From Acidimicrobiales bacterium (GTDB lineage: Bacteria > Actinomycetota > Acidimicrobiia > Acidimicrobiales > AC-9): DNA of 64,000 bases. Of this stretch, positions 1 to 15,252 are shown piece after piece; position 1 is the first letter of the stretch, and every line of letters begins with the position of its first letter. The notes below the pieces were generated by a model. The model searched no databases and was not told the DNA's origin. It saw only the letters and a program-made list of their open reading frames with translations. Where the stretch lies: contig DATBBR010000046.1 in NCBI GenBank assembly GCA_036270875.1, forward strand, positions 9,925-73,924, in the 5' to 3' direction. A program made the position numbers and the translations under genes.

Positions 1-2768
1 CCTACGACCACCGCATCATCCAGGGGGCCGAGTCGGGGACGTACCTGTCGAGGATCCACCAGCTGCTCCTCGGCGAGGACGGCTTCTACCATGACGTGTT
101 CCGGTCGATGGGCGTGCCCTACGAGCCCGTCGAGTGGCGGCCCGACGTCAACCCTGTCGATCAGGAGCGCGGCCATCTCGTCAAGCAGATGCACGTGCAG
201 ACCCTTATCAACATGTACCGGGTCAGGGGCCACTTGATCGCCGACCTCGATCCGCTGGAGGCCCGTCCGCCGAGGATGCACGCGGAGCTCGATCCCGCGA
301 CCTACGGCCTGACCCTGTGGGACCTCGACCGCGAGTTCCTCACCGACGGTCTGGCCGGGCGGGACATGCTCACGCTGGGCGAGACCCTCGGCATTCTGCG
401 CGACGCCTACTGCCGGACCGCCGGCGTCGAGTACATGCACATCCAGGAGCCCGACCAGAAGCGTTGGATCCAGGACCACGTCGAGGGCGTCCCGACCAGG
501 CTCAGCCAGGACGAGCAGCGTCACCTCCTCGGCCGGCTGAACGCCGCCGAGGCGTTCGAGCGCTTCCTGCACAGCAAGTACATCGGCCAGAAGCGGTTCG
601 GTCTCGAAGGAGCCGAGTCGGCCATACCGCTGTTGGACGCGGTACTCGACGAGGCGGCCAAGGCGGGGGTGACCGAGGCCTTCATGGGCATGGCCCACCG
701 GGGCCGTCTCAACGTGCTGGCCAACATCGTGGGCAAGTCCTACGGAGAGATCTTCCGCGAGTTCGAAGGCGACATCGACCCGGAGTCGGTGCAGGGATCC
801 GGCGACGTCAAGTACCACAGGGGCGCCTCCGGAAAGTTCGTCGGTCTCTCGGGCGCCGAGCTGCCCGTCACCCTGGCGTCGAATCCCTCCCACCTCGAGG
901 CCGTGGACCCGGTCGTCGAAGGGATGGCGCGGGCCCGCCAGGACCTGTCGGACGAGCCGGCCACGTTTCCCGTGCTGTCGCTCCTGGTCCACGGGGACGC
1001 CGCCTTCGCCGGACAGGGCGTGGTGGCCGAGACCCTCAACCTGTCCAATCTGCGCGGCTACCGGACCGGCGGGACCGTCCACCTGGTGATCAACAACCAG
1101 CTGGGCTTCACGACCGCACCCGAGGCCGGGCGCTCGAGCCTCTACGCCACCGACGTGGCCAAGATGGTCCAGGCGCCGATCTTCCACGTGAACGGCGACG
1201 ACCCCGAGGCCTGCGTGCGGGTGGGGAGGCTGGCCTTCGCGTTCCGCCAGGAGTTCCGCAAGGACGTCGTCATCGACATGGTTTGCTACCGGCGGTTCGG
1301 CCACAACGAAGGAGACGAGCCGAGCTACACCCAGCCCCAGATGTACGAGCGGATCGAGAGCAAGCGGTCCGTGCGCAAGCTCTACACCGAGGCCCTGGTG
1401 AAGCGGGGAGACATCACCCTGGAGGACGCCGAGCGCGCCCTGGACGACTTCTCGGCCCGCCTCGAGGCCGCTCTCGACCAGACGCGCTCGTCAGCCCCAC
1501 CGCGGCCCACCACGCTGCCCGAGGTGAAGGCGCCCCCGGCCCCGGTGGCGCCGATCGGTACGGCCGTGGAGCGGGCCGTGCTCGATCGCATCGCCGACCG
1601 GTTGCACCACCCGCCCGAGGGCCTCAGCGTCCATCCCAAGCTCGCCCGCCAGTTGGAGTCCAGGGCGAGCGTCTACGCCGGGGGAGAGGTGGACTGGTCG
1701 CTGGCCGAGGCCCTGGCCTTCGGGTCGATGCTGTTGGAGGGCACCGACGTCCGCCTCACCGGTCAGGACACCCGGCGGGGGACCTTCAGCCAGCGCCACG
1801 CCGTGCTCGTCGATTACCACAGCGGCACCGAGTACCTGCCGCTCGTCGCCCTGGCCGCCGAGGGTGGAAACGGTAGCCGGGGCCGCTTCTTCGTCTACGA
1901 CTCATCGCTGTCGGAGTACGCCGCCCTCGGCTTCGAGTACGGCTACTCGGTGGTCCACGGCGACGCCCTGGTCGCCTGGGAAGCACAGTTCGGCGACTTC
2001 ATCAACGAAGCCCAGGTCGTGGTGGACGAGTTCATCATGGCGGCCCAGGACAAGTGGGGCCAGAGCTCGTCGCTGGTGCTGCTGCTTCCACACGGCTACG
2101 AGGGACAGGGTCCCGATCACTCCTCGGCGCGGATGGAGCGCTTCCTGACTTTGGCGGCCGAGGACAACTCCTGTCTCGTGAACCTCACGACCGCAGGCCA
2201 GTACTTCCACCTGCTGCGGTCCCAGGTGCACCGCGAGATGCGCCGGCCGCTGGTGATCTTCACGCCCAAGTCGTTGCTGCGGTCGAAGGCGGCCCGCACG
2301 GCGATCGAGGACCTGACCGACGGACACTTCCGGGCCGTGCTCGACGACCCCGCGACCGGAGAGGCCGGCGCCCGCGTGGATCCCGGCACGGTCGAGCGGG
2401 TCGTGCTCTGCACCGGCAAGGTCGCCTACGACGCCATGGCCGCCCGAGACGCCCGGCTCGAGCAGGGCGAGGCGCCGGTCAGCGCGGTGGTCCGGGTGGA
2501 GCAGCTGTACCCGTGGCCCGAGGACGGTATCGCCACGTTGCTGGCCCGCTACGAGAAAGCCAGCGAGGTGGTGTGGCTCCAGGAGGAGCCGGAGAACATG
2601 GGCGCCTGGGCCTTCGTGCACGGACGGCTCCACCGCCTGCTTCGCAACGACTTCACGCTCCGCCACGTGAGCCGGATCGAGGCGGGGAGCCCGGCCACCG
2701 GCAGCACGGCCATGCACCAGCTGGAGGCGAAGGACCTGCTGGCCCGCGCCCTGCAGCCGTTCGACTGA
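1..2768 (+). CDS. kgd: 2-oxoglutarate dehydrogenase/decarboxylase E1, Kgd-type with fused E2-like acyltransferase segment (5' end cut by window edge)
   Basis: Frame is open from nt 3. YDHRIIQGAESGTYLSRIHQLLLGEDGFY is the E2 catalytic DHRxxxGA-type motif. It continues into E1 motifs INMYRVRGHLIADLDPL, HGDAAFAGQGVV and GHNEGDEPSYTQP. Stop TGA 2766-2768. Confidence 0.95.
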   Translation, partial: YDHRIIQGAESGTYLSRIHQLLLGEDGFYHDVFRSMGVPYEPVEWRPDVNPVDQERGHLVKQMHVQTLINMYRVRGHLIADLDPLEARPPRMHAELDPATYGLTLWDLDREFLTDGLAGRDMLTLGETLGILRDAYCRTAGVEYMHIQEPDQKRWIQDHVEGVPTRLSQDEQRHLLGRLNAAEAFERFLHSKYIGQKRFGLEGAESAIPLLDAVLDEAAKAGVTEAFMGMAHRGRLNVLANIVGKSYGEIFREFEGDIDPESVQGSGDVKYHRGASGKFVGLSGAELPVTLASNPSHLEAVDPVVEGMARARQDLSDEPATFPVLSLLVHGDAAFAGQGVVAETLNLSNLRGYRTGGTVHLVINNQLGFTTAPEAGRSSLYATDVAKMVQAPIFHVNGDDPEACVRVGRLAFAFRQEFRKDVVIDMVCYRRFGHNEGDEPSYTQPQMYERIESKRSVRKLYTEALVKRGDITLEDAERALDDFSARLEAALDQTRSSAPPRPTTLPEVKAPPAPVAPIGTAVERAVLDRIADRLHHPPEGLSVHPKLARQLESRASVYAGGEVDWSLAEALAFGSMLLEGTDVRLTGQDTRRGTFSQRHAVLVDYHSGTEYLPLVALAAEGGNGSRGRFFVYDSSLSEYAALGFEYGYSVVHGDALVAWEAQFGDFINEAQVVVDEFIMAAQDKWGQSSSLVLLLPHGYEGQGPDHSSARMERFLTLAAEDNSCLVNLTTAGQYFHLLRSQVHREMRRPLVIFTPKSLLRSKAARTAIEDLTDGHFRAVLDDPATGEAGARVDPGTVERVVLCTGKVAYDAMAARDARLEQGEAPVSAVVRVEQLYPWPEDGIATLLARYEKASEVVWLQEEPENMGAWAFVHGRLHRLLRNDFTLRHVSRIEAGSPATGSTAMHQLEAKDLLARALQPFD

Positions 2769-2772
2769 GCGG

Positions 2773-3393
2773 TTACCCGAGCGCGAACCCCACGACCGTT
2801 TCGAGCTCGGCGATGGCGCGAGCGGGGTCGTCCACCTTGATCGTCGTCATGCCGAGGGCCCGGGCCGACTTCAGGTTGACACCGAGATCATCGAGGAACA
2901 CGGACTCACTGGGCGCCACGCCGAGCTCGGCGCAGGCCAGCTCGTAGAAGCGAGGGTCGGGCTTGCGAACACCGATCCGACTCGACTCGACGATCACGTC
3001 GAACAGCTCGCGGATCTCGGTCATCGCCGGATCGCCGTCCGGAAGGGTGAAGTTGTTCGTGAGCGCCGCGGTCCGCAGCCGTTCCTGGCAGCGGCGCACG
3101 GCGGTCACCATCGCCGGGCGGATCTCACCGGCCAGGAGTCGCATCACGGCGGCGGCGTCGAGCTGGTGACCAGCGCTGCGGGCCTCGGCCTCGAAGAGCC
3201 GGCAGAACTCCTCGAAGCTCACGGCGTTGCGCTCGAGGCGGGCCCAGGCGTTGTCGTCGGAGTTGGTCGCGTTCAGCGAGCGGATGAAGCCGTCCGGCAG
3301 CCCGTGGGCCCGCTCGTAGTCGGTGAAGGCCTCGAACGGGCTGGTCAGGATCACCCCGCCGAGGTCGAACAGGACGGCCTTCAGCTCGGTCAT
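2773..3393 (-). CDS. HAD-superfamily hydrolase (IA-like phosphatase)
   Basis: Start taken at internal ATG 3393 (MTELKAVLFDLGGVIL, HAD motif I). Later motifs are SSRIGVRKPDPRFY and FLDDLGVNL. The 119 upstream codons of the 325-aa ORF are Arg/Pro-rich and non-homologous. Confidence 0.85.
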   Translation of the reverse strand: MTELKAVLFDLGGVILTSPFEAFTDYERAHGLPDGFIRSLNATNSDDNAWARLERNAVSFEEFCRLFEAEARSAGHQLDAAAVMRLLAGEIRPAMVTAVRRCQERLRTAALTNNFTLPDGDPAMTEIRELFDVIVESSRIGVRKPDPRFYELACAELGVAPSESVFLDDLGVNLKSARALGMTTIKVDDPARAIAELETVVGFALG

Positions 3394-3497
3394 TCGCCCA
3401 ATCGTAGGGAGGCGGCCAGGCCCGGAAGGGCCCCTGGCCCCGCTCGCTCCCAGCCCGATCGCCCACAGGGTCGCCGCCGGATGGTTGACTACAGGAA

Positions 3498-5078
3498 ATG
3501 GCATATCGGCGCGTCGTTGTGGACGGGTCCAACATCGCCACCGAGGGTCGCTCCGTTCCGAGCCTGGCCCAGCTTGACGAGGCGGTCCGGGAGTTTCAGC
3601 GCGAGTTCCCGGACGCCGAGGTGACCGTGGTGGTCGACGCCTCGTTCGGGCACCGGATCGACGAGTCGGAGCGCCCGGCGTTCGACGAGGCCGAGGCGCA
3701 CGGCGAGATCGTGTCTCCTCCCGCTGGCGCCATCGGCAGGGGCGACGCATTCCTCCTCCGCATCGCCGAGAAGACCGGCGCGACCGTGCTGTCCAATGAC
3801 TCGTTCCAGGAGTTCCACGGCGAGCACGACTGGCTGTTCTCCCAGTCGCGCCTGGTCGGAGGCAAGCCGGTGCCCAGCGTGGGCTGGATCTTCACCGCTC
3901 GCACACCGGTCAGGGGTCCGCGCAGTCGAGTGGCGACACAGGACGCCAAGCGCACCCGGGTGCGGGTCGGCTCCAAGGAGGCGTCGAAGCCGATGCCGGT
4001 GCCCGCAGTGCCGCCGCCCGGCAGAGGCCGGCGGGACGGAGGGCCGAAGGAGCCCGAGGACGGCGCCGGGGCGGTCAGGGACGCCACGCCTCCCGCCGAC
4101 CCAAAGGTTCGCCAGGCCATCGCCGCCGCCACCGAGGAGGTCGTGTCGCCCCAGACATCCTCGGGCGGTCGTCGTCGCCGGCGAGGATCCGGGCCCCCAC
4201 CCCAGGCGGTCAACGATCCTCTGACGTTCATCAGGTTCATCGCCGAGCACCCCCTGGGCCAGCTGGTCGAGGGCGAGGTGGAGAGCTTCACGTCGCACGG
4301 CGCCTTCGTGCGGGTCCAGAATGCGCAGGCCTACGTGCCGGTCTCCGGTCTCGGCGACCCGCCTCCCCGCAGCGCCCGGCGGGCCCTGCGGCGGGGGGAG
4401 CGCCGTCCCTTCGTGCTCCAGGCCCTGGACCCGCAGCGGCGGGGGGTGGAGCTGGCGCTGCCGGAGTTCGCCCACGTGGCCGGGTCGCCCAGCGAGGAGA
4501 CGGTCGAGGCCGAGATCTCGGAGGCGACGGGCACCGACGAGGTGGTCCCCGACGCCGAGCGGGGCGCAGCGCGCAAACGGGTCCAGAAGGCGACGGCCCC
4601 AGAGAAGGCGTCCGAGAAGGCGAAGGACGGGAAGGGCAGGCGGCGAGCCGGGAAGGGCGATGGCCCGGCCCAACAGGCCAAGGCGGCGACGACCAAGAAG
4701 GCCAAGGCTGGTGCGGCCAAGAAGGCGAAGGCTGGTGCGGCCAAGAAGGCCAAGGCCGCACCGGCGAAGGCGGCGGCCAAGACGGCGGCCAAGGCCGGGA
4801 AGACCACGAAGCCATCCAAGGCGACCAAAGCCCCGGTGACCAAGTCCCCGGTCACCAAGTCCCCGGCCTCCAAGTCCCCGGTCGCCAAGACACAGGTGAC
4901 CAAGACCCGTGTGAGCAAGGCCCCCGCGACCAAGGCCAAGGCGACCAAGAAGACGGCGGAGAAGGCGACGAAGAAGGCGACGAAGGACGCGTCGGCGGGA
5001 GCGACGGCCGGAGCCGAGGCCAAGGCCCCGGTCAGGACCGCGACGGCCAGGGCGTCCGAGGGCCGGGCCAAGAAGTAG
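3498..5078 (+). CDS. NYN (Zc3h12a-like) ribonuclease domain + S1 RNA-binding domain + Lys/Ala/Pro-rich histone-H1-like C-terminal tail
   Basis: RRVVVDGSNIA, VVVDASFGH and GATVLSNDSFQEF match the Zc3h12a-type NYN signature. GQLVEGEVESFTSHGAFVRV is S1/OB-like. The last ~150 aa are AKKAKAGAAKKAKAGAAKKAKAAPAKAAAK plus PVTKS-type pentapeptide repeats. Confidence 0.8.
   Translation: MAYRRVVVDGSNIATEGRSVPSLAQLDEAVREFQREFPDAEVTVVVDASFGHRIDESERPAFDEAEAHGEIVSPPAGAIGRGDAFLLRIAEKTGATVLSNDSFQEFHGEHDWLFSQSRLVGGKPVPSVGWIFTARTPVRGPRSRVATQDAKRTRVRVGSKEASKPMPVPAVPPPGRGRRDGGPKEPEDGAGAVRDATPPADPKVRQAIAAATEEVVSPQTSSGGRRRRRGSGPPPQAVNDPLTFIRFIAEHPLGQLVEGEVESFTSHGAFVRVQNAQAYVPVSGLGDPPPRSARRALRRGERRPFVLQALDPQRRGVELALPEFAHVAGSPSEETVEAEISEATGTDEVVPDAERGAARKRVQKATAPEKASEKAKDGKGRRRAGKGDGPAQQAKAATTKKAKAGAAKKAKAGAAKKAKAAPAKAAAKTAAKAGKTTKPSKATKAPVTKSPVTKSPASKSPVAKTQVTKTRVSKAPATKAKATKKTAEKATKKATKDASAGATAGAEAKAPVRTATARASEGRAKK
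4695..4766 (+). repeat. In-frame 24-nt tandem repeat (about 3 units, KKAKAGAA) in the basic tail
   Basis: aagaaggccaaggctggtgcggcc / aagaaggcgaaggctggtgcggcc / aagaaggccaaggccgcaccggcg, read directly. Confidence 0.9.
4833..4952 (+). repeat. In-frame 15-nt tandem repeat (8 degenerating units, P-V/A-T/S-K-S/T pentapeptides)
   Basis: ccggtgaccaagtcc, ccggtcaccaagtcc, ccggcctccaagtcc, ccggtcgccaagaca, caggtgaccaagacc, cgtgtgagcaaggcc, cccgcgaccaaggcc, aaggcgaccaagaag. Confidence 0.9.
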
Positions 5079-6337: not shown

Positions 6338-8443
6338 TTACGCCGACCGCCGATGTTGGGACACCAGGTCGAGCAGTGCCTCGCCGTACCGGGCCGCCTT
6401 CACGGGTCCCAAGCCGGGCAGGGCGAGGAGCTCGTTGTGCGACGCCGGTAGGGCGCTGGCGACGGCGGCCAGCGTCGTGTCATGGCAGATCACGTAGGCG
6501 GGTACTCCCGAGAGCCGGGCGGCGGAAGACCGCCAGGCACGGAGAGCGGCGATCATGGCGGGATCGGCGGCCTCCACCATGGCGGCGCCCGGGGTTCGAG
6601 GTCGGGTGCGTCGTCCGCCGGCCGCCTGCTGGCGGCTGAGCCGGGAGCGCTCGGCCTGGATGAGCCGGAGCGGATCCATCCCCTCCGGGGCCTGGGCGAG
6701 CGCCCGGCGGGCCAGGTCGACCGCCTCGAGGTACGGGGAGCGGGTCCTCGCCGCGGTGCGTGTCCCGAACGTTCGCCGCTCGGCCCACGAGCAGTGCAGC
6801 TCCCGCTCGGCCCGGGTCAGGGCCACGTACAGGAGGCGGCGTTCCTCCGCCTCGGCCGCCGGTGTGGCGGCGTGCCCGATGGGCACCAGGCCGCGCTCCA
6901 GCCCGGCGAGGAACACCACGGGCCACTCCAGTCCCTTGGCCCGATGGAACGTGGTCAGCTCGACGGCGTCGGCCCCGGCGTCGGCTCCTTCGCTGCGCAC
7001 GGTCGCTGCCAACCAGGCCGAGAACCCCTCGGCCGATGCCGCCTGGTCCACCGCCTCATACTCGTGGCCCAGTCGGACCAGGCCCTCCAGGTGCGACCGA
7101 CGATCCGCGACCTCGTGGCCGCCTCCGGGGCCGGCTGCCGCCTCTTCGCCCACGGCACGGTCGAGGTCGGCGACCCGACCCTCGAGGTCAGCCAGGCGGG
7201 CGGCGAACGGCATCCCGGCCGGCGCCCTTCGCAGCTCGCCCAGGGCGTCTTTGACCTCGGACCGATCCAGGAACGCTTCGCCGCCGGACACCCGGTAGGG
7301 GACGCGGGCCGAGCGGAGGGCCTCTTCGAGCAGCACCAGCTGGGCATTGGTCCGGGTCAGGACGGCCAGGTGGGCCCAGGGCATGCCCGGTCGGCGGGCC
7401 TTGCGCAGCCTGCTGGCGATCATGCGGGCCTCGGACACATCGGTGTCGGAGGCCGTGACCGTCGGCACCGGCCCGTCGGCCTGGGTCGCCCGGAGCATGT
7501 CCGTGGGTGCGGTCCGGCCCTGGGCCAGCACCGCCGCCGCCACCGTCAGGACCTGGGGGGACGATCGGTAGTTGTGGTCGAGGCGCACGACACCGGCGGT
7601 CGGGTAGCGGTGGGAGAAGCGGCCCAGCAGCGACGGGTCGGCCCCGTTCCACGAATAGATGGCCTGGTTGGGGTCGCCGACCACGCACAGGTCGAGACGG
7701 TCGCCCATCCAGCCCTGTAGAAGCCGGAACTGGGCCGGGTTGACGTCCTGGAACTCATCGACGAACAGATGGCGGAAGCGCCACCGCTGGGCGGCGGCGA
7801 AGCCCGGGTCCTGCTCGAGGTCGTTGATGCACGCCACCAGCAGGTCATCGAAGTCGACCAGCCCCTGGCGGACCTTCTCCTGCTCGTAGCTGCTGTAGAT
7901 GGCGGCCATCTCGTGCGCTGGCACCGGTGGCCGCCGGCCCGCGGCCACGAGTGCCTCCGGGTAGCCGTCGGGGGGGACCATCCTGGCCTTGGCCCACTCG
8001 ATCTCCGCGGCCAGGTCGGCCAGGGACGAGCCAGCCTTGGCCGGGCCGGCGGCGCTCCGCCCACCGTCGCGGCGCGCCGCCAGGCGGGCGAGCAACCGCA
8101 CCTTGCGATCGAGCAGGGCCGGCGGGCGCGTGCCCAGGTCGGCCCACCGTTGGCGCAGCTGGCCGTAGGCGATGCCGTGGAAGGTCCCGGCCGTCACCTG
8201 CTGGCGTACCCCGAGGGCCCGGAGGCGGGACCGCAGCTCGCCGGCCGCTTTGCGGGTGAAGGTCAAGGCGAGGACGTGGCGGGCATCGGCGGTGTCCTGC
8301 TCGATCCGCCAGGCGACGCGCCGGGTGAGGACGCGAGTCTTTCCCGACCCCGCTCCGGCCAGCACGCAGAGGGGGGCAGCATCGGACGTCACCGCGCGGC
8401 GCTGCCCGTCGTTGAGGTCTTGCAACAGCGCGGTGTCACCCAT
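6338..8443 (-). CDS. UvrD/PcrA-family ATP-dependent DNA helicase with C-terminal HRDC domain (UvrD2-like)
   Basis: AGAGSGKTRVLTRR (Walker A), DEFQDVNP, NYRSS. The C-terminal HRDC-like segment is LRAWRSSAARLSGVPAYVICHDTTLAAVA...LPGLGPVKAARYG. Start is ATG 8443 with a GGGAGG SD; the upstream 62 codons are junk. Confidence 0.9.
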   Translation of the reverse strand: MGDTALLQDLNDGQRRAVTSDAAPLCVLAGAGSGKTRVLTRRVAWRIEQDTADARHVLALTFTRKAAGELRSRLRALGVRQQVTAGTFHGIAYGQLRQRWADLGTRPPALLDRKVRLLARLAARRDGGRSAAGPAKAGSSLADLAAEIEWAKARMVPPDGYPEALVAAGRRPPVPAHEMAAIYSSYEQEKVRQGLVDFDDLLVACINDLEQDPGFAAAQRWRFRHLFVDEFQDVNPAQFRLLQGWMGDRLDLCVVGDPNQAIYSWNGADPSLLGRFSHRYPTAGVVRLDHNYRSSPQVLTVAAAVLAQGRTAPTDMLRATQADGPVPTVTASDTDVSEARMIASRLRKARRPGMPWAHLAVLTRTNAQLVLLEEALRSARVPYRVSGGEAFLDRSEVKDALGELRRAPAGMPFAARLADLEGRVADLDRAVGEEAAAGPGGGHEVADRRSHLEGLVRLGHEYEAVDQAASAEGFSAWLAATVRSEGADAGADAVELTTFHRAKGLEWPVVFLAGLERGLVPIGHAATPAAEAEERRLLYVALTRAERELHCSWAERRTFGTRTAARTRSPYLEAVDLARRALAQAPEGMDPLRLIQAERSRLSRQQAAGGRRTRPRTPGAAMVEAADPAMIAALRAWRSSAARLSGVPAYVICHDTTLAAVASALPASHNELLALPGLGPVKAARYGEALLDLVSQHRRSA

Positions 8444-8512
8444 GCCTCCCGACCGTATCGACGGGGTGTGACAACGCGGTGGATGCTCGCCGACGGACGG
8501 AGCCCGGAACGA

Positions 8513-8567
8513 GATCGGCCCCAAGTAGCCGTGGGGCCTTCGCCCCCCGGACTCCTCGGGGCCGATC
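8513..8567. other. Nested inverted repeat: 10-bp perfect outer stem enclosing an inner GGGGC/GCCCC hairpin
   Basis: gatcggcccc (8513-8522) pairs with ggggccgatc (8558-8567). The inner hairpin is ggggccttcgcccc. Confidence 0.7.
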
Positions 8568-8621
8568 CTCAGGCCACGCCCCTGAACCGTCGGTCGCCTG
8601 CCAGCGACTGTCCGGCCCCGG

Positions 8622-8643
8622 CCGAGCACCTGTCGGTGCTCGG
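8622..8643. other. Perfect 9-bp stem / 4-nt loop hairpin, with no U-tract on either strand
   Basis: ccgagcacc-tgtc-ggtgctcgg, read directly. Function unknown. Confidence 0.7.
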
Positions 8644-8936
8644 ACCAAGCGACAACCCTGACGCAACCTTCGTCGGCTCACCAACCACATCGGGCGGGGA
8701 CCTGTGGCCCATCCTGACCCCGGCGGCCGGCTCCACCTGCTCCGGTTGCGCTGGCCGCATTCTGCACCCGCGTGCCGGGCGCGTCAAGGGCCCGACGGTA
8801 TGGAAGGGCCGGTCGGGCGAGAGCGGATATCGTCGTGGTGCAGGTTGGCCGCGGGCGCAAGCCGACCGCCCGCCGACCGCCCGCTCACGTCGATGTCTGT
8901 TGCGCAACCCGCCCACTCGCTCGTCCCCGCCTGGCC

Positions 8937-9767
8937 ATGCTGAAGTCCTTCGACGGCGGCCGGCTCTTCGGCGCGTCCTATGGTGGCGACGGGACGCCGT
9001 GGCTGCTTGCCCTGCACGGGTGGGCGCGCACGCACCAGGACTGGCGCGCCGTGCTCGGGGCGCGAGACGCGGGAACGGTGCCGCAGGGGAGCTCTCCGGC
9101 GACCCGACCCTCGCGGATCGGTGACCCGTCGGTCGACGAGTCGGGAGGACTGGACGCGATGGCCTCGGTGGCCCTGGACCTTCCGGGGTTCGGGGCGACG
9201 CCACCGCCGCCCGAGGCCTGGGGATCGGCCGAGTACGCGGCCGCCGTCGCGCCCGTTCTCGCGGAGCTGGAGGTGCCCACGGTGGTCGTGGGCCACTCGT
9301 TCGGTGGCCGGGTCGCGGTCCACCTGGCCGCCGCCCAGCCGGGCCTCGTGAAGGCGCTGGTGCTGACCGGTGTGCCGCTCGTGCGCCAGGCTGCAGGAAG
9401 CCGTCGCCCACCTCTGCGGTACCGGGTCGGTCGAGCGCTGTACGGGCGGGGGCTCGTCGGCGAGGACCGGATGGAGACGCTGCGCCAGCGCTACGGCTCG
9501 CCCGACTACCGGGCCGCCACCGGCGTCATGCGCCAGGTCCTCGTCCGGACGGTGAACGAGACCTACGACGACCAGCTGCGCGCCTTGCGCTGCCCGGTCG
9601 AGCTCGTGTGGGGCGACGACGACACCGAGGTTCCCGTCTCGGTCGCCGAGACGGCGGCGAGGCTACTGGCCCGCCCAAACCTGACCGTGTGTCGCGGCGC
9701 AGGCCATCTCGTCCCGCTCACCGCCCCCGACGCGCTCCGTCAGGTCATCGAGCGCCACCGGCCATGA
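8937..9767 (+). CDS. Alpha/beta-fold hydrolase
   Basis: Start at ATG 8937 (MLKSFDGGRLFG). LALHGW, nucleophile elbow GHSFGGRVA, C-terminal GAGHLVPL. A Pro/Ser/Gly-rich insertion precedes LDLPGFG. The stop overlaps the next start (ATGA). Confidence 0.85.
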   Translation: MLKSFDGGRLFGASYGGDGTPWLLALHGWARTHQDWRAVLGARDAGTVPQGSSPATRPSRIGDPSVDESGGLDAMASVALDLPGFGATPPPPEAWGSAEYAAAVAPVLAELEVPTVVVGHSFGGRVAVHLAAAQPGLVKALVLTGVPLVRQAAGSRRPPLRYRVGRALYGRGLVGEDRMETLRQRYGSPDYRAATGVMRQVLVRTVNETYDDQLRALRCPVELVWGDDDTEVPVSVAETAARLLARPNLTVCRGAGHLVPLTAPDALRQVIERHRP

Positions 9768-11500
9768 GTGCCCTCGACATCGCCGTCGTCGCCAGCGCGG
9801 TGGCCGGCTCGGCACTGGCTGGTCTCCGTTGGCTCCGGGTCGCGCAGCGGGAGCACTACCTGGCCGGTTCGGTCACCCGGTTCGCCCTCCGCTGGTGGTG
9901 GGGGGCGGTCAGCTTCAACCGATTGCTCGCGATGGTGGCGGTCCTGGGCTTCCTCGTCACCCTCTCGTTCGCTCCGGCCGGGTTCGCCCCCGCGGCCGTC
10001 GTGGCCCTTGGGCCGGTGGGCCTCTCGCTGCGTGGGCGCACCGCCAAGCTGGTGTGGACCAGGCGCCTCCGGACACTCGCCGTGGTGTGGGCCGCGCTCC
10101 AGGCTGTCGTGGTGGTGGCCGGACTGGCGGGAGGAGTCGGCCCCGTGGTGGCGGTCGCCGGCGCCCTGCTCGTGCCGCCGCTGGTCGACGCCGCCTGTGC
10201 CCTGACCGCCCCGTTCGAGCGCCGCTTGGCCGATCGCTTCGTCGGCGAGGCGACCACCAAGCTGCGCCGGCTGGCACCGATCGTCGTCGGGATCACCGGC
10301 TCCTACGGCAAGACCTCGACCAAGGGGTACGTGGGCTACCTTCTCGCCTCGACCCGAGCTGTCGTCGTCAGCCCCGCGAGCTACAACAACCGGGCCGGGC
10401 TGGCCCGCACGGTCAACGAGCATCTGGCTCCGGGAACGGAGGTCCTGGTCGCCGAGATGGGCACCTACGGCCCCGGAGAGATCGCCGAGCTCACCTCGTG
10501 GTTGAGCCCTCGCGTCGGGGTGATCACGGCCATCGGACCCGTGCACCTGGAGCGCTTCGGGTCCGAGAACCGCATCGTCGAGGCCAAGGCGGAGATCCTC
10601 GATCGAGCGGAGACAGCGGTGCTCAACGTCGACGACGCTCGTCTGCGGGCCCTCGCCGACCAGGCTGCGGCCGCGGGCAGACGGGTGTGGCGGTGCTCGG
10701 GGACAGACCGCGACGCCGACGTGTGCGCGCTCGTCGACGGCGCCGCGCTGGAGGTTCATCGCAAGGGCACCCTGATGGCCCGGGTGGACGTCGCCGACGC
10801 CCGCCCGACCAACGTGGCGTGCGCCGTGGCCGTGGCGCTCGAGCTGGGCGTGGCGGAGGCGGAGGTGGCGCGGCTGCTGCCCGGGCTGCCCGTAACGCCC
10901 AACCGCCTGAACGTGGCGGTCGGCTCCACGGGCGTCACCGTCGTCGACGACACCTACAACTCCAACCCGGCGGGCTGTCGCGTGGCCCTGGACGTCATGG
11001 GCCGCCACGGGCGCGACGGCCACCGGCGAGTGGTCGTCACCCCCGGGATGGTCGAGCTGGGAGACCGCCAGCACCCCGAGAACAGCGCCTTCGCCGCTGC
11101 GGCGAGAGCAGTCGCCACCGACCTGGTCATCGTCGGCTTCACCAACCGCAAGGCGCTGCTCGAGGGGGCCGGCGAAGACAACGTCAGGATCAGCGGGTGG
11201 CGGGCCGGAGCGGGTGGGTACACCATCGCGCCCGACGACGACGAGGAAGACGAGGACGAAGCGGACGGGGAGAGCCGGCCCGGCGCGACAGACCCTCGCG
11301 GCGCCGAGACCGAAGGCGCCGAGACCGAAGGCGCCAAGGCTTCCGGCGCCAAGACGGACGGCGACGGGGTCCCCGCCGAGCACCCCGCCCAGGAGGTCCT
11401 GGTAGGAAGCCGCGACGAGGCAGTGAGCTGGGTGAAGGCCCACCTGGGCGAGGGCGACGTCGTGCTCTACGAGAACGACCTGCCCGACCACTTCGCATGA
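9764..11500 (+). CDS. MurF-family (UDP-MurNAc-tripeptide--D-Ala-D-Ala ligase-like) Mur ligase with an N-terminal multi-helix membrane domain replacing the usual N-domain
   Basis: ATGA overlap with the upstream stop. The first ~175 aa are hydrophobic helices, followed by ITGSYGKTSTKG, SYNNRAGLARTV, AEMGTYGPGEI, DDTYNSNPAG and GMVELGD. An acidic repeat insertion sits near the C-terminus. Confidence 0.85.
   Translation: MSALDIAVVASAVAGSALAGLRWLRVAQREHYLAGSVTRFALRWWWGAVSFNRLLAMVAVLGFLVTLSFAPAGFAPAAVVALGPVGLSLRGRTAKLVWTRRLRTLAVVWAALQAVVVVAGLAGGVGPVVAVAGALLVPPLVDAACALTAPFERRLADRFVGEATTKLRRLAPIVVGITGSYGKTSTKGYVGYLLASTRAVVVSPASYNNRAGLARTVNEHLAPGTEVLVAEMGTYGPGEIAELTSWLSPRVGVITAIGPVHLERFGSENRIVEAKAEILDRAETAVLNVDDARLRALADQAAAAGRRVWRCSGTDRDADVCALVDGAALEVHRKGTLMARVDVADARPTNVACAVAVALELGVAEAEVARLLPGLPVTPNRLNVAVGSTGVTVVDDTYNSNPAGCRVALDVMGRHGRDGHRRVVVTPGMVELGDRQHPENSAFAAAARAVATDLVIVGFTNRKALLEGAGEDNVRISGWRAGAGGYTIAPDDDEEDEDEADGESRPGATDPRGAETEGAETEGAKASGAKTDGDGVPAEHPAQEVLVGSRDEAVSWVKAHLGEGDVVLYENDLPDHFA
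11300..11359 (+). repeat. In-frame 15-nt tandem repeat (GAETE, GAETE, GAKAS, GAKTD) inside the acidic insertion of the MurF-like protein
   Basis: ggcgccgagaccgaa x2, then ggcgccaaggcttcc and ggcgccaagacggac. Confidence 0.9.
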
Positions 11501-11564
11501 TCTCCTCGGGCTCCGATCCGGGGGCTAGTTTCCAGGGAGGGCCCCAAGTACCGGAGAGTGACCC

Positions 11565-12674
11565 GTGAGCGACACCGCAGTCATCTTTGGCGGGCCGTCC
11601 CCCGAGCACGACGTGAGTGTGTTGACCGGGCTCCAGGTGACGCGAGCGCTGAACACGACCGGGTCCGAGCGGATCAGGGCGCTGTACTGGACGAAGTCGG
11701 GAGACTGGTTCGAGGTGGCGCCCGATCTCGAGGGCGAGGCCTTCGTCGACGGCGTGCCGCCCGGCTCGACCCCCCTCCGACTGGAGGCCGACGCCGGGGG
11801 CGGGTTCCAGGCCAGGGCCGCTCTCACGGGCCGGCCCCGACCGCTCGATATCTCCGCCGCCCTTATTTGCTGCCACGGTGGTCCCGGTGAGGACGGGACG
11901 CTCCAGTCGGCGCTCGATCTCGCAGGCGTCCGCTACACCGGCCCCACCGCAGCTGGGGCGGCGCTCGGCATGGACAAGCTGGCGTTTGCGGGTCTGGCCA
12001 TCGCCGCGGGGCTCCCGACCCTGCCGCGGATCCTGCTCACTGACGCCGCCCGCCCCGACTTCCCCGGCCCCTACATCGTCAAGCCCCGGTTCGGCGGGTC
12101 GTCCATCGGCATCGAGGTGGTCGAGGACCTGGCCACGGCCACGGCCCGCCTGCTGAACAACGCCCACCTCCGGCGGGGGGCGGTGGCCGAGCCCTATCGG
12201 CCCGACCTGTTCGACCTCAACGTCTCGGTGCGGAGCTGGCCCGAGGTCAAGCTCTCCGCCATCGAGCGCCCGATCCGTTCACAATCGTCCTCCGACATCC
12301 TCAGCTACGCCGACAAGTACGTGGGCGGCGCGGGCATGGCCAGCGCACCCCGTGAGCTGCCCGCCGAGCTGGACAGCGGCCTCGAGTCGCGACTCACCGA
12401 GGCTGCCCACCTGGTGGCCCGGCTGGTCGACCTTCGCGGCGTGGCGCGCATCGACTTCCTCTCCGATGGCAAGGATCTGTTCGTCAACGAGGTCAACACG
12501 GTTCCGGGCTCGATGGCCAAGTATCTGTGGGTGGCGCCTCCGGTGTCCTTCACCACGCTGCTGGCGGACATGCTGGCGGAGGCGATGGCCCGGCCGTCGG
12601 TGCAGCACCTGGCCGTCGGGGCCGACGGCGCCGTCCTGCGCTCGGCGGGGAGCATCGCCAGCAAGCTGACCTGA
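11565..12674 (+). CDS. ddl: D-alanine--D-alanine ligase (ATP-grasp)
   Basis: GTG start. VIFGGPSPEHDVSVLTG, HGGPGEDGTLQSALDLAGVRYTG, IVKPRFGGSSIGI, ARIDFL...FVNEVNTVPGS. Confidence 0.88.
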   Translation: MSDTAVIFGGPSPEHDVSVLTGLQVTRALNTTGSERIRALYWTKSGDWFEVAPDLEGEAFVDGVPPGSTPLRLEADAGGGFQARAALTGRPRPLDISAALICCHGGPGEDGTLQSALDLAGVRYTGPTAAGAALGMDKLAFAGLAIAAGLPTLPRILLTDAARPDFPGPYIVKPRFGGSSIGIEVVEDLATATARLLNNAHLRRGAVAEPYRPDLFDLNVSVRSWPEVKLSAIERPIRSQSSSDILSYADKYVGGAGMASAPRELPAELDSGLESRLTEAAHLVARLVDLRGVARIDFLSDGKDLFVNEVNTVPGSMAKYLWVAPPVSFTTLLADMLAEAMARPSVQHLAVGADGAVLRSAGSIASKLT

Positions 12675-12689
12675 CTCGGCTCGAAGGCC

Positions 12690-13364
12690 GTGACTCACGC
12701 TGCCGTGGGAGCGACCAGGTGGGTCGATACCCTTTTCCTGGTGCCGATCCCTCGAAAGCTGCTGAACGAGGGCGAGCAGGTCGTCGTCGACCTCCGCCCG
12801 CATTGGTCATTCCTCATCGGGCCGGTGCTGGGGGCGATCGGTGTCATTGTCGTGGCCGTGGCGATCCTGGTGGCGTTCCCGTCGGCCCCGGGAGTCGTCA
12901 TCGTCGCCGTGCTGCTCTTCCTTGCCGGCGCCATGGTCTGGCTCGCCGGCCGGTATGCCCGGTGGGCCAGCACCAGCTTCGTGCTGACCAACAGCCGCGT
13001 GGTGTACCGGACCGGCGTCCTCATCCGCCACGGACGCGAGATCCCGCTGGAGCGGCTGAACGACATCACGGTCCACCAGTCGATCCTGGAGCGCCTCGTG
13101 GGCTCGGGTCGGCTCTATGTCGAGTCGGCGGGACGGATGGGGGAGGAGGCGTTCATCGGCGTGCCCCACTGCCTGGCGGTGCAGAAGGCCATCCACCAGC
13201 AGCTGGAGCAGTCGCGGCGCCGGTGGGCCGAGCAGTCGGTCGGCCGGGTGCCCCTCACCGTCCCCGAGCAGCTCGAGAAGCTCGACAATCTGTGTCGCCG
13301 CGGTGTGATCACGAGGGCCGAGTTCGACGCCGAGAAAGCCCGGCTCCTCGACCACCTACGCTGA
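12690..13364 (+). CDS. Membrane protein with bacterial PH (bPH_2/YdbS-like) domain and C-terminal SHOCT domain
   Basis: LLNEGEQVVVDLRPHW, then two TM helices, then VLTNSRVVYRTG. The C-terminal LEKLDNLCRRGVITRAEFDAEKARLL is the SHOCT signature. An alternative GTG start lies at 12741. Confidence 0.75.
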   Translation: MTHAAVGATRWVDTLFLVPIPRKLLNEGEQVVVDLRPHWSFLIGPVLGAIGVIVVAVAILVAFPSAPGVVIVAVLLFLAGAMVWLAGRYARWASTSFVLTNSRVVYRTGVLIRHGREIPLERLNDITVHQSILERLVGSGRLYVESAGRMGEEAFIGVPHCLAVQKAIHQQLEQSRRRWAEQSVGRVPLTVPEQLEKLDNLCRRGVITRAEFDAEKARLLDHLR

Positions 13365-13390
13365 ACGACAGGTCCCGCCGGTGCCAGCTG

Positions 13391-14428
13391 CTAAGCGTCG
13401 ACGACCTCTACCGACGCTCCCGCCGAGGCCCGCAGGACCCATCCCCGGCGGTTGTCGGGAACGACGGCGCCCGGCTCGGTGAGCGCCACCACGCAGCCAC
13501 CGAAGCCCGCACCCGTCATCCGGGCACCGAGCACGCCCGGCGTGCCCAGCAGCTCGTCCACCAGGGCATCGAGCGACGGCGTGGAGACCTCGAAGTCCGC
13601 GGCGAGGCTGCGGTGGCTGGCGGTCATCTCCGCGCCGGCCGATGCCAGATCGCCCGCGGCGATGGCCTGCGCTGCCGCCCGGACCCGGGCGTTCTCGGTG
13701 ACGACATGGCGGGCCCGGCGTCGGAGGACTGGATCGCGGATCGAGCCGACCTCGGCGGCCGTCGCCTCGCGCAGCGCTCCGACGACGGCCTCGGCGGCTT
13801 CGCACTCTGCCCGACGGGCGGCATAGGCGGAGCCGGCCAGGCCTCGAGCCCGCCCTGAGTGCACGGCCACGACCTCGACCTCGTCCGGCAGGGCGACCGG
13901 CGAGACGACGAGCGATGCACAGTCGAGCAGCAGGGCGTGGCCGCGGCGACCGCACGCCGACGCGAGCGGGTCCATCACGCCGCACGGCACCCCTGCCGCC
14001 ACCCGCTCGGCCCGCTGGCACGCCTGCGCCAGCTGCACCGGCGTGCCCTCGAAGCCGAGGGCCAGGGCGACGGCCACCTCCAGGGCGGCGCTCGACGCCA
14101 GCCCGGCGCCGATCGGAAGGTTCGAGCTGACGGTGCCGATGCCGCCGGCCGGTGGCGTCGCCGTCTCGACCACGCCGGCGACGTAGCGGGCCCAGCGCGG
14201 TGCGTCGTCGCCAACGCTGGCGAGGGGCTGGGCCCGGTCGACGGTGGCCCGTCCGGGCTGGTCGCCGGAGACCAGCTCCACCCGGTCCAAGGTCTCGTCC
14301 CGCTCGAGCGCCACGTCGACGCCCAGGTCGATCGCCATGGGGAGGGCCAATCCGCCCGTGTAGTCGGTGTGGTCGCCGATGAGGTTGACCCGCCCTGGGG
14401 CGTGGGCCCGGACCCGGCAAGGGCTCAT
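13391..14428 (-). CDS. galK: Galactokinase (GHMP kinase)
   Basis: Start at ATG 14428. PGRVNLIGDHTDYTGG and PIGAGLASSAALEVA. Confidence 0.9.
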   Translation of the reverse strand: MSPCRVRAHAPGRVNLIGDHTDYTGGLALPMAIDLGVDVALERDETLDRVELVSGDQPGRATVDRAQPLASVGDDAPRWARYVAGVVETATPPAGGIGTVSSNLPIGAGLASSAALEVAVALALGFEGTPVQLAQACQRAERVAAGVPCGVMDPLASACGRRGHALLLDCASLVVSPVALPDEVEVVAVHSGRARGLAGSAYAARRAECEAAEAVVGALREATAAEVGSIRDPVLRRRARHVVTENARVRAAAQAIAAGDLASAGAEMTASHRSLAADFEVSTPSLDALVDELLGTPGVLGARMTGAGFGGCVVALTEPGAVVPDNRRGWVLRASAGASVEVVDA

Positions 14429-14466: not shown

Positions 14467-15252
14467 ATGGCCGGGGCGAGCTCGCGATGGGCCGAAGCAC
14501 TGCACGGCTGGGCCATCCCACACGAGATCCTGGCCAGTGCACCGGAGTCGCCGTGGGGCTTCCCCCCTGAGCTGTTCGCGGCTCCCGAGGCGCCGGCGGC
14601 GACGCCGTCGAGGAATCGAGCACTGGAGGCCCTCCCCACGGGCGGATCCGTTCTGGACGTCGGTGTGGGCGCCGGAGCGGCCAGCCTGGGCCTGGTCCCT
14701 CCGGCGGCCCGGCTCGTCGGGGTGGATGAGAGCGCCGACATGTTGGCCCGCTTCGCCGCCGCCGCCGCCGGCCTGGGGGTTGCCGTGCGCACCGTCCCCG
14801 CCCCGTGGCCCGAGGCTGCCGGCGAGGCGGGACGGGCCGACGTCGTCGTGTGCCATCACGTCCTGTACAACGTGGCTGAGCTCGTCCCCTTCGTCCGCGC
14901 CCTCACCTCGGCCGCCCGCCGGCGTGTCGTCGTCGAGCTCACGGCCCAGCATCCCCAGTCCGCGCTGAGTCCCCTGTGGCTGCATTTTCACGGGCTCGAG
15001 CGGCCCACTGGACCGAATGCCGGCGACGCGGTGTCCGTGCTCGAGGAGATCGGGATCGAGCCCGAGGTCGAGCGCTTCACCGGGCCCGCGCGACTGGCCG
15101 AAGTGGACCGAGGCGACCTCGTTGCCTTCGCCCGCCGCCGCCTGTGCCTGCCGGCCGAGCGCGACCCCGAGGTGGAGTCGCTGCTTCCGGTCAACGCCAC
15201 CCTCCCGGGAAGGGAGCTGGTCTGCGTGTGGTGGTCTCCGCCCCGCGCTTGA
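14467..15252 (+). CDS. Class I SAM-dependent methyltransferase
   Basis: VLDVGVGAGAASL glycine-rich SAM motif, followed by VGVDESADML and VVVCHHVLYNV. Confidence 0.75.
   Translation: MAGASSRWAEALHGWAIPHEILASAPESPWGFPPELFAAPEAPAATPSRNRALEALPTGGSVLDVGVGAGAASLGLVPPAARLVGVDESADMLARFAAAAAGLGVAVRTVPAPWPEAAGEAGRADVVVCHHVLYNVAELVPFVRALTSAARRRVVVELTAQHPQSALSPLWLHFHGLERPTGPNAGDAVSVLEEIGIEPEVERFTGPARLAEVDRGDLVAFARRRLCLPAERDPEVESLLPVNATLPGRELVCVWWSPPRA

Follow-up and report, generated by a model that had tools for sequence, protein, structure and literature searches.

Mur ligases are textbook soluble cytoplasmic enzymes, and the pentapeptide of peptidoglycan is held to be complete on UDP-linked N-acetylmuramic acid (UDP-MurNAc) before MraY acts. 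Characterised Mur-fold enzymes without domain 1, namely MurT, CapB/PgsB, FolC and cyanophycin synthetase, work on non-UDP acceptors. In Bacillus subtilis, murF adjoins ddl outside the division and cell wall (dcw) cluster, which is a precedent for a murF-ddl pair away from dcw. Here we analyse a small operon within a 64,000-nucleotide stretch of contig DATBBR010000046.1 from an Acidimicrobiales bacterium (hereafter the window), at the centre of which lies a gene for a MurF-family ligase with a predicted membrane domain. In Mur ligases it is the N-terminal domain that holds the UDP-MurNAc portion of the substrate, and a survey of Mur ligase fusions includes none with a membrane domain (PMC10214165). 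The ligase described here appears to have exchanged that domain for a polytopic membrane domain, is translationally coupled to a serine hydrolase and is followed by a D-Ala-D-Ala ligase (Ddl) homologue. We consider it likely that this protein is the housekeeping MurF of its lineage and the only one of the organism, encoded beside Ddl at a distance from a dcw cluster in which murF is lacking.

A MurF relative with a membrane domain

The MurF character of the ligase, which a first-pass annotation of the locus had read from central and C-terminal signatures, is borne out by profile and structure searches. Pfam places Mur_ligase_M at residues 177-319 (1.8e-26) and Mur_ligase_C at residues 381-466 (4.2e-9), and finds no domain in residues 1-176. 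The top NCBIfam model is TIGR01143 (murF), at 190.6 bits and thus below its cutoff of 288.6. Of the 418 positions in this profile, 65-367 are matched, and because the match starts at position 65, MurF domain 1 is absent. MurF also heads the PDB matches by sequence (2am1, E 8e-26) and by Foldseek (4qf5, 3zl8 and 4cvm). In PDB profile alignments the central domain aligns to the MurF central domain, and the C-terminal domain aligns to those of 3zl8, 2am1 and 4cvk. The profile match bears out the earlier supposition that domain 1 is missing. AlphaFold2 modelled the full ligase with a predicted local distance difference test score (pLDDT) of 85 and a predicted template modelling score (pTM) of 0.81. 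Together these results support kinship with MurF, with domain 1 lost and a polytopic membrane domain acquired.

The catalytic motifs are conserved. Across 56 orthologues, aligned with 56% mean column identity, the P-loop G179-S-x-G-K183-T184, E231, H261, K275, R381 and D395-D-T-Y-N-x-N-P402 are invariant; K275 corresponds to the lysine that is carbamylated in Mur ligases. The MurF-specific motifs S-x-NN-x-x-GL, DDTYNxNP and GMVELG are also kept. At its C-terminal end the protein reads YENDLPDHF, in the family YENDLPDH(F/Y), where canonical MurF has KGSR, and L568, E570, N571, D575 and H576 are invariant among the same 56 proteins. The C-terminal domain of the window ligase is interrupted by an acidic insertion, DDDEEDEDEADGE...AETEGAETEGAKASGAKTDG (window 11198-11386), which is predicted to be disordered (pLDDT <50 at residues 479-538). 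This insertion is lineage-specific, most orthologues being 495-540 residues long and lacking it.

In place of domain 1, hydropathy analysis predicts five membrane spans (approximately residues 4-21, 53-69, 73-88, 103-121 and 126-148), in keeping with the roughly 175 residues of hydrophobic helices first noted here, and AlphaFold2 folds this region into a helical bundle with pLDDT above 90 (pLDDT 92.5 and pTM 0.85 for the region alone). Loops rich in lysine and arginine (residues 21-55, 88-106 and 140-176) follow the positive-inside pattern and so point to an external N-terminus and cytoplasmic ligase domains. Among the 56 orthologues, the cytoplasmic loops hold a first set of invariant residues (R22, W23, R25, Q28, R29, E30, H31, Y32, F40, R43 and W44) and a second one further on (G83, P84, G86, G91, W98, T99 and R101). 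Hydropathy, alignment and the AlphaFold2 model place the conserved residues at the membrane-cytoplasm interface, and Asp142, also invariant, lies within the membrane. Searching Pfam with the region returned nothing even at E<=10, and Foldseek returned no PDB match with E<1. On these grounds the N-terminal region appears to be a new membrane domain, without a known family or fold match.

Acidimicrobiia dcw clusters without murF

To reach dcw clusters with no lineage-specific seed, we back-translated the MraY motif N-x-TDGLDGL for high GC content, scanned metagenome contigs for the result and classified the upstream neighbour of mraY in 120 high-GC loci. Canonical murF lay directly upstream of mraY in at least 61 of these 120 loci, all from other lineages, and ten canonical MurFs tested from metagenomic dcw loci scored 314-378 bits on TIGR01143. 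In a few of the 120 loci, murE itself adjoins mraY. The first-pass annotation had assumed that a canonical dcw murF would stand beside a specialised ligase, and had named the lack of any other murF as the observation that would speak against specialisation. None of the five Acidimicrobiia dcw clusters contained murF; all read ftsI-murE-mraY-murD. Other murF genes thus appear to be lacking in relatives of the window, as judged from these clusters and from the murF slot of Methylomirabilota described below.

One case links both loci on a single contig. Contig L182 carries a full mraZ...ftsI-murE-mraY-murD-ftsW cluster, and its MraZ falls in the 90% cluster 'MraZ [Acidimicrobiales bacterium]'. 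Searching with the L182 MurE led to protein P0549, which is encoded on the same contig as the membrane-MurF orthologue P0021 (ERZ12294693:scaffold_35_c1, 877,743 bp). Between 769 and 790 kb this contig reads mraZ-rsmH-ftsL-ftsI-murE-mraY-murD-ftsW-murG-murC-murB-ftsQ-ftsZ, where murE overlaps mraY and murF is missing. At 590-604 kb, ~170 kb away, it holds UvrD, hydrolase, membrane-MurF, Ddl, bPH-SHOCT, GalK, hydrolase and CoA-transferase genes, which is the gene order of the window. The murE-mraY junction recurs in Acidimicrobiia contigs L210 and L211 and in L105, whose MraY is 63% identical to the reference. For the window itself, the dcw argument rests on such syntenic relatives, with ligase identities of 55-63%.

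Two further candidates for mraY without an upstream Mur ligase, L177 and L174, were rejected as mraY paralogues in other contexts. The L177 region 67-4122 holds a second mraY-like gene (Glycos_transf_4) outside any dcw cluster, preceded by genes for a MurG-like GT28-HEAT repeat fusion and an alpha/beta hydrolase; these genes may form a separate lipid-linked glycan pathway. As a separate observation, murE also stands directly against mraY in four loci of other lineages (L188, L129, L156 and L205), which by sequence character look Firmicutes-like, Bacteroidota-like and others.

A related trio in the murF slot of Candidatus Methylomirabilota

A second line of evidence comes from two metagenomic loci, L094 and L133, whose products fall into clusters with entries labelled Candidatus Methylomirabilota (MGD0263435 and MGD0263437). 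Their ligases score ~200 bits against the catalytic domain of the window ligase, compared with ~100 bits for canonical MurFs from metagenomic loci. They are of the membrane type, with the C-terminal end LLYENRLPDTY, and the membrane domains of the Acidimicrobiia and Methylomirabilota types share Q28, Y32, W44 and R101. The accompanying hydrolase belongs to the same family as that of the window (GHSFGG and GSRDYRAAG..R..LV..VNED), and in L094 it overlaps the ligase gene by 4 nucleotides (GTGA). In both loci Ddl follows the ligase, and mraY and murD come directly after it. A longer Methylomirabilota contig reads mraZ-...-rsmH-ftsL-ftsI-murE-[hydrolase / membrane-MurF / Ddl]-mraY-murD-ftsW-murG-murC-murB-ftsQ-ftsA-ftsZ, so that the trio takes the place of murF in a dcw cluster that is standard in other respects. 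Compared with its counterpart in the window, the hydrolase is 42% identical, the ligase 34-37% and Ddl 30%. One Methylomirabilota dcw cluster (L209) additionally carries, at 2476-2847, a STAS-domain gene and a 58-residue open reading frame between mraZ and rsmH.

Family size and conservation of the module

The membrane-MurF family is large, with 4,993 matches at 90% clustering and 1,266 clusters at 50% identity (E<=1e-30). In a full-protein search of 1.84 billion representatives, the best 150 of the 1,266 clusters were all of the membrane type, which puts any canonical MurFs of those lineages beyond the reach of this search. In databases the family goes under the names 'MurF' and 'Mur ligase family protein', and the membrane domain is left unmentioned.

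We then scanned one genome per species and obtained at least 80 loci, mostly from Acidimicrobiia metagenome-assembled genomes (MAGs), whose taxonomic labels are only as reliable as the depositors' binning. The counts that follow refer to the loci listed, among which labels also include Frankiales, Modestobacter, Pontimonas, Gulosibacter, Propionibacteriaceae and Egibacteraceae. The hydrolase gene lies directly upstream of the ligase in 77 of 80, and Ddl is encoded within 500 nucleotides downstream in about 67 of 80. Hydrolase, membrane-MurF and ddl thus form a widely conserved core. A 4-nucleotide hydrolase/ligase overlap (ATGA, GTGA or TTGA) is present in 58 of the 77 pairs, where chance would give ~5%. 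UvrD helicase and bPH-SHOCT genes accompany the module only in closer relatives. Three loci with Acidimicrobiia-like synteny carry Gammaproteobacteria or Acidobacteriota MAG names (L021, L060 and L068), probably through mis-binning or mislabelling.

Where ddl is displaced or missing, the inserted genes are unrelated (a two-component system or NAD salvage). Sponge-associated Acidimicrobiia such as Candidatus Spongiisocius (L024, L042 and L044) have the hydrolase and membrane-MurF genes with the 4-nucleotide overlap and no ddl after them; downstream they carry NAD-salvage genes instead (nicotinate phosphoribosyltransferase-like and isochorismatase-like). In the cultured strain Geodermatophilus sp. 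SYSU D00691 (GCA_054050275.1; L083, 11556-13728) the module lies outside the ddlA/thiL neighbourhood and is followed by a convergent, short Ddl-like gene (326 residues) whose product shares 26% identity with the module Ddl and 31% with DdlA of Mycobacterium tuberculosis. The module may be an extra copy in that lineage.

Partner proteins

The hydrolase matches Pfam Abhydrolase_6 (4.6e-17) and Abhydrolase_1 and has no specific NCBIfam family at cutoff; its weak top matches include EstV-type lipases and the acyltransferase OlsI. In 80 orthologues the catalytic triad of Ser121 (in the nucleophile elbow GHSFGG), Asp229 and His257 is 99-100% conserved, together with a family-specific motif (G187, S188, D190, Y191, R199, E208 and Y210). 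These features suggest a new hydrolase family tied to cell-wall synthesis. The window protein also contains a low-complexity insertion rich in proline, serine and glycine (~30-40 residues, window 9054-9170) between its HGW and DLPGFG motifs, which is conserved neither in the 80 orthologues nor in the Methylomirabilota homologue.

Ddl scores 162.7 bits on TIGR01205, below the cutoff of 245.65. Its catalytic motifs nonetheless align with those of M. tuberculosis Ddl 3lwb (EH, HGxxGEDG, KPxxGGSS, RxDF and NExNTxPG), and the omega-loop Lys-Tyr pair (DKY) is retained in the same alignment. Four module Ddls were compared, namely those of L001, a Pontimonas-like genome, Geodermatophilus and the window. 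Pairwise identity among them is 42-62%, against 26-31% with M. tuberculosis DdlA, and these four actinomycetotal proteins have the C-terminal tail LRxAGxIAxKL in common. Downstream of the operon, the window holds thiL, recG, rnc, smc, ftsY, ffh, rimM, trmD and rplS, the classical actinobacterial ddlA neighbourhood, and the Pontimonas-like genome reads gpsA-[module]-DUF3515-thiL. Given these two positions, the module Ddl looks like the housekeeping Ddl, and it is the presumed supplier of dipeptide to the ligase.

Layout of the locus

The window has a GC content of 69-74%, and its best protein matches are Acidimicrobiales MAGs. Four genes, for the hydrolase, the MurF-like ligase, Ddl and a bPH-SHOCT protein, run head to tail on the forward strand (Table 1). 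Direct reading of the sequence reproduced the previously described layout exactly, in its coordinates, its ATGA overlap and its two gaps. The ligase ATG at 9764 overlaps the hydrolase TGA (9765-9767); 64 nucleotides separate the ligase stop (11500) from the ddl GTG (11565), which has GGAG 5' of it, and 15 nucleotides separate the ddl stop (12674) from the bPH-SHOCT GTG (12690). A promoter and terminator scan of 8400-13600 found none on the forward strand inside the operon, and an Rfam scan of the window gave no matches. The bPH-SHOCT protein matches Pfam bPH_2 (4.5e-15) and SHOCT (3e-8), and its gene is probably co-transcribed with the operon here. Its inclusion in the module by the first-pass annotation does not extend to the family, since it adjoins ddl only in close Acidimicrobiales relatives and is elsewhere or absent in the rest.

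Table 1. Coordinates of the operon and its features within the window
Feature	Position	Strand	Basis
Alpha/beta-fold serine hydrolase, 276 residues	8937..9767	+	Pfam Abhydrolase_6 and Abhydrolase_1
ATGA stop/start overlap of hydrolase and ligase genes, translational coupling	9764..9767	+	Direct sequence read
Membrane-embedded MurF-family ligase, 578 residues	9764..11500	+	Pfam, NCBIfam, PDB, AlphaFold2, Foldseek, motif conservation
Five-helix membrane domain in place of MurF domain 1, residues 1-175	9764..10288	+	Hydropathy, AlphaFold2
Central ATP-binding Mur ligase domain, residues 176-375	10289..10888	+	Pfam Mur_ligase_M, PDB profile alignments
C-terminal Mur ligase domain, residues 376-578	10889..11497	+	Pfam Mur_ligase_C
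Acidic repeat-like disordered insertion within ligase C-terminal domain, residues 479-541	11198..11386	+	pLDDT, orthologue lengths
D-Ala-D-Ala ligase family protein (Ddl), 369 residues	11565..12674	+	Pfam Dala_Dala_lig_N and Dala_Dala_lig_C
bPH_2 / SHOCT membrane protein, 224 residues	12690..13364	+	Pfam bPH_2 and SHOCT

The 64-kb window contains no second Mur ligase gene, and the locus has no glutaminase gene. Elsewhere in the window, a gene at 3498-5078 encodes a 526-residue protein with an N-terminal NYN/Zc3h12a-like RNase domain and no other recognisable domain, which holds the same position in relatives L001 and L002. An S-adenosylmethionine-dependent methyltransferase gene (14467-15252) stands between galK and the second hydrolase gene and is absent from the otherwise syntenic L001, L002 and L208.

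Proposed function and alternative explanations

A housekeeping role for the membrane-embedded ligase is the most likely explanation because dcw murF is absent from the Acidimicrobiia clusters and because the trio occupies the murF slot in Methylomirabilota. Under this explanation, Ddl would make D-Ala-D-Ala, the MurF-type central domain would activate MurE's product, MurNAc-tripeptide, at its terminal carboxylate with the help of ATP, and the C-terminal domain would present the dipeptide to give the pentapeptide. The five-helix domain, located where the canonical UDP-binding domain would be, could use its Arg/Trp/Tyr-rich cytoplasmic loops to keep the acceptor's carrier end at the inner membrane face. 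Both the D-Ala-D-Ala-adding activity and this role of the membrane domain are inferred. The translationally coupled serine hydrolase, predicted to be catalytically competent, would act as an obligate partner; editing or trimming of the acceptor, as initially suggested for it, is possible.

A membrane-bound acceptor is plausible. Whether it is lipid-linked (undecaprenyl-PP-MurNAc-tripeptide, after MraY) or UDP-linked is the least secure step, and here we lean only slightly towards the lipid-linked form. In that case MraY would transfer the tripeptide form and the ligase would complete the pentapeptide on lipid I or lipid II. Alternatively, the acceptor would stay UDP-MurNAc-tripeptide, with the new domain anchoring the enzyme near MraY and the Arg/aromatic loops replacing the UDP pocket. 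Our lean reflects three considerations: among characterised Mur-fold enzymes, those that lack domain 1 act on non-UDP acceptors, and MurT on lipid II; five helices, conserved interface residues and the invariant Asp142 seem to be more than an anchor would need; and the new domain occupies the expected site of the substrate's carrier end. The fullest version of the scheme remains tentative, with the balance tilted against it: in Acidimicrobiia, Methylomirabilota and some other Actinomycetota, MraY might transfer MurNAc-tripeptide, an integral-membrane MurF might complete the pentapeptide on lipid I- or lipid II-tripeptide, and the hydrolase might carry out a required new step.

Several observations weigh against a housekeeping role. 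The absence of murF was seen in dcw clusters, and it is from there that we infer the absence of a canonical murF elsewhere in the genome. The ligase falls under the curated murF cutoff and is missing the UDP-MurNAc-binding domain that all characterised MurFs have, and Ddl falls under the cutoffs of all curated Ddl (and Van ligase) models. No requirement of a housekeeping MurF for a serine hydrolase is known, which leaves part of the chemistry unexplained. The sponge-symbiont lineage has hydrolase and ligase without an adjacent ddl, and the Geodermatophilus module, which lies off the ddlA slot with another Ddl-like gene next to it, is consistent with an accessory function in that lineage. Finally, we found no published description of a membrane-fused MurF, including in PMC11915815, PMC8698665 and the Lipocone preprint.

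The Geodermatophilus locus also lends support to an accessory or repair ligase that works beside a soluble MurF, re-adding D-Ala-D-Ala to lipid-linked or trimmed stems after trimming by the hydrolase. This strain is the sole named cultured isolate among the 120 best matches to Actinomycetes-type members, model Actinomycetes as a rule carry murF in the dcw cluster, and the exchange of domain 1 for a membrane domain would suit such an enzyme. An accessory paralogue, to which that locus, an apparently patchy distribution across Actinomycetes and the lack of the UDP domain had pointed, was rejected in view of the dcw clusters of Acidimicrobiia and Methylomirabilota. One of the five murF-less Acidimicrobiia clusters shares a contig with the syntenic operon, the Methylomirabilota trio occupies the murF slot itself and the module Ddl sits at the housekeeping ddlA position; we therefore regard the accessory role as unlikely.

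The low scores of both ligase and Ddl against curated families, and the EstV- and OlsI-like matches of the hydrolase, would also fit an enzyme outside peptidoglycan synthesis that attaches D-Ala-D-Ala or another Ddl-family product to a membrane carboxylate (a fatty acid, lipid or uronic-acid glycolipid), with the hydrolase supplying or releasing the acyl substrate. Mur-fold ligases without domain 1 do make poly-gamma-glutamate, cyanophycin and folylpolyglutamate. Such a role is quite improbable given that the MurF-specific motifs are retained and that the Methylomirabilota module lies between murE and mraY; with no murF in the Acidimicrobiia dcw clusters, it would also leave the cell without a way to complete the pentapeptide. 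It is hardly credible that the protein is a MurF-derived, non-catalytic membrane scaffold or regulator. Its score below the family cutoff and its missing substrate-binding domain could be read in that way, whereas the P-loop, Mg-binding Glu, His261, Lys275, Arg381 and DDxYNxNP are invariant in the 56 orthologues and the hydrolase triad is likewise invariant.

If the ligase is indeed the housekeeping MurF, whole lineages appear to live without a soluble one, namely the methane-oxidising Methylomirabilota and the Acidimicrobiia, a group abundant in soil, water and sponges. This calls into question whether completion of the pentapeptide always takes place on the nucleotide precursor, and it suggests a hydrolase step that has so far been overlooked. 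The names given to these proteins, which ignore the membrane domain, amount to a systematic annotation problem. A MurF of different structure also has practical interest, because antibiotics can target both MurF and Ddl.

Comparison with known systems

Four known systems resemble the window operon in part. Poly-gamma-glutamate synthetase CapB/PgsB is a membrane-associated Mur-fold amide ligase without domain 1, yet it has a single anchor and the partners PgsC and PgsA, is polymerising and has no Ddl partner; it was absent among the NCBIfam, PDB sequence and Foldseek matches of the window ligase. The ddl-murF operon of the B. subtilis type shares the lack of murF between murE and mraY and the placement of murF beside ddl elsewhere, but its MurF is a canonical soluble three-domain enzyme, it includes no hydrolase and the order is ddl then murF. 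MurT, of the lipid II isoglutaminyl synthase MurT/GatD, is similar in having a Mur fold without domain 1, a lipid-linked precursor and an adjacent partner enzyme (PMC6085368). It differs in being soluble, in its DUF1727 C-terminal domain, in its glutaminase partner and in catalysing amidation rather than dipeptide addition, and the window ligase matches it only marginally (E 2e-4 by PDB sequence search; 15 bits by NCBIfam).

Canonical MurF (EC 6.3.2.10; TIGR01143; PDB 1GG4, 2AM1, 3ZL8, 4CVK and 4QDI) is alike in its central and C-terminal domains, its partnership with Ddl and its dcw slot, which the Methylomirabilota trio fills. The P-loop, Glu, His, carbamyl-Lys position, Arg and DDxYNxNP are common to both. 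In contrast to canonical MurF, the window ligase has a 175-residue five-helix domain for domain 1 and YENDLPDH(F/Y) for KGSR, and it is paired with an obligate, translationally coupled alpha/beta hydrolase. As far as can be judged from sequence, the features that appear new with respect to known systems are the polytopic membrane domain that replaces the UDP-MurNAc-binding domain and the seemingly obligate serine hydrolase.

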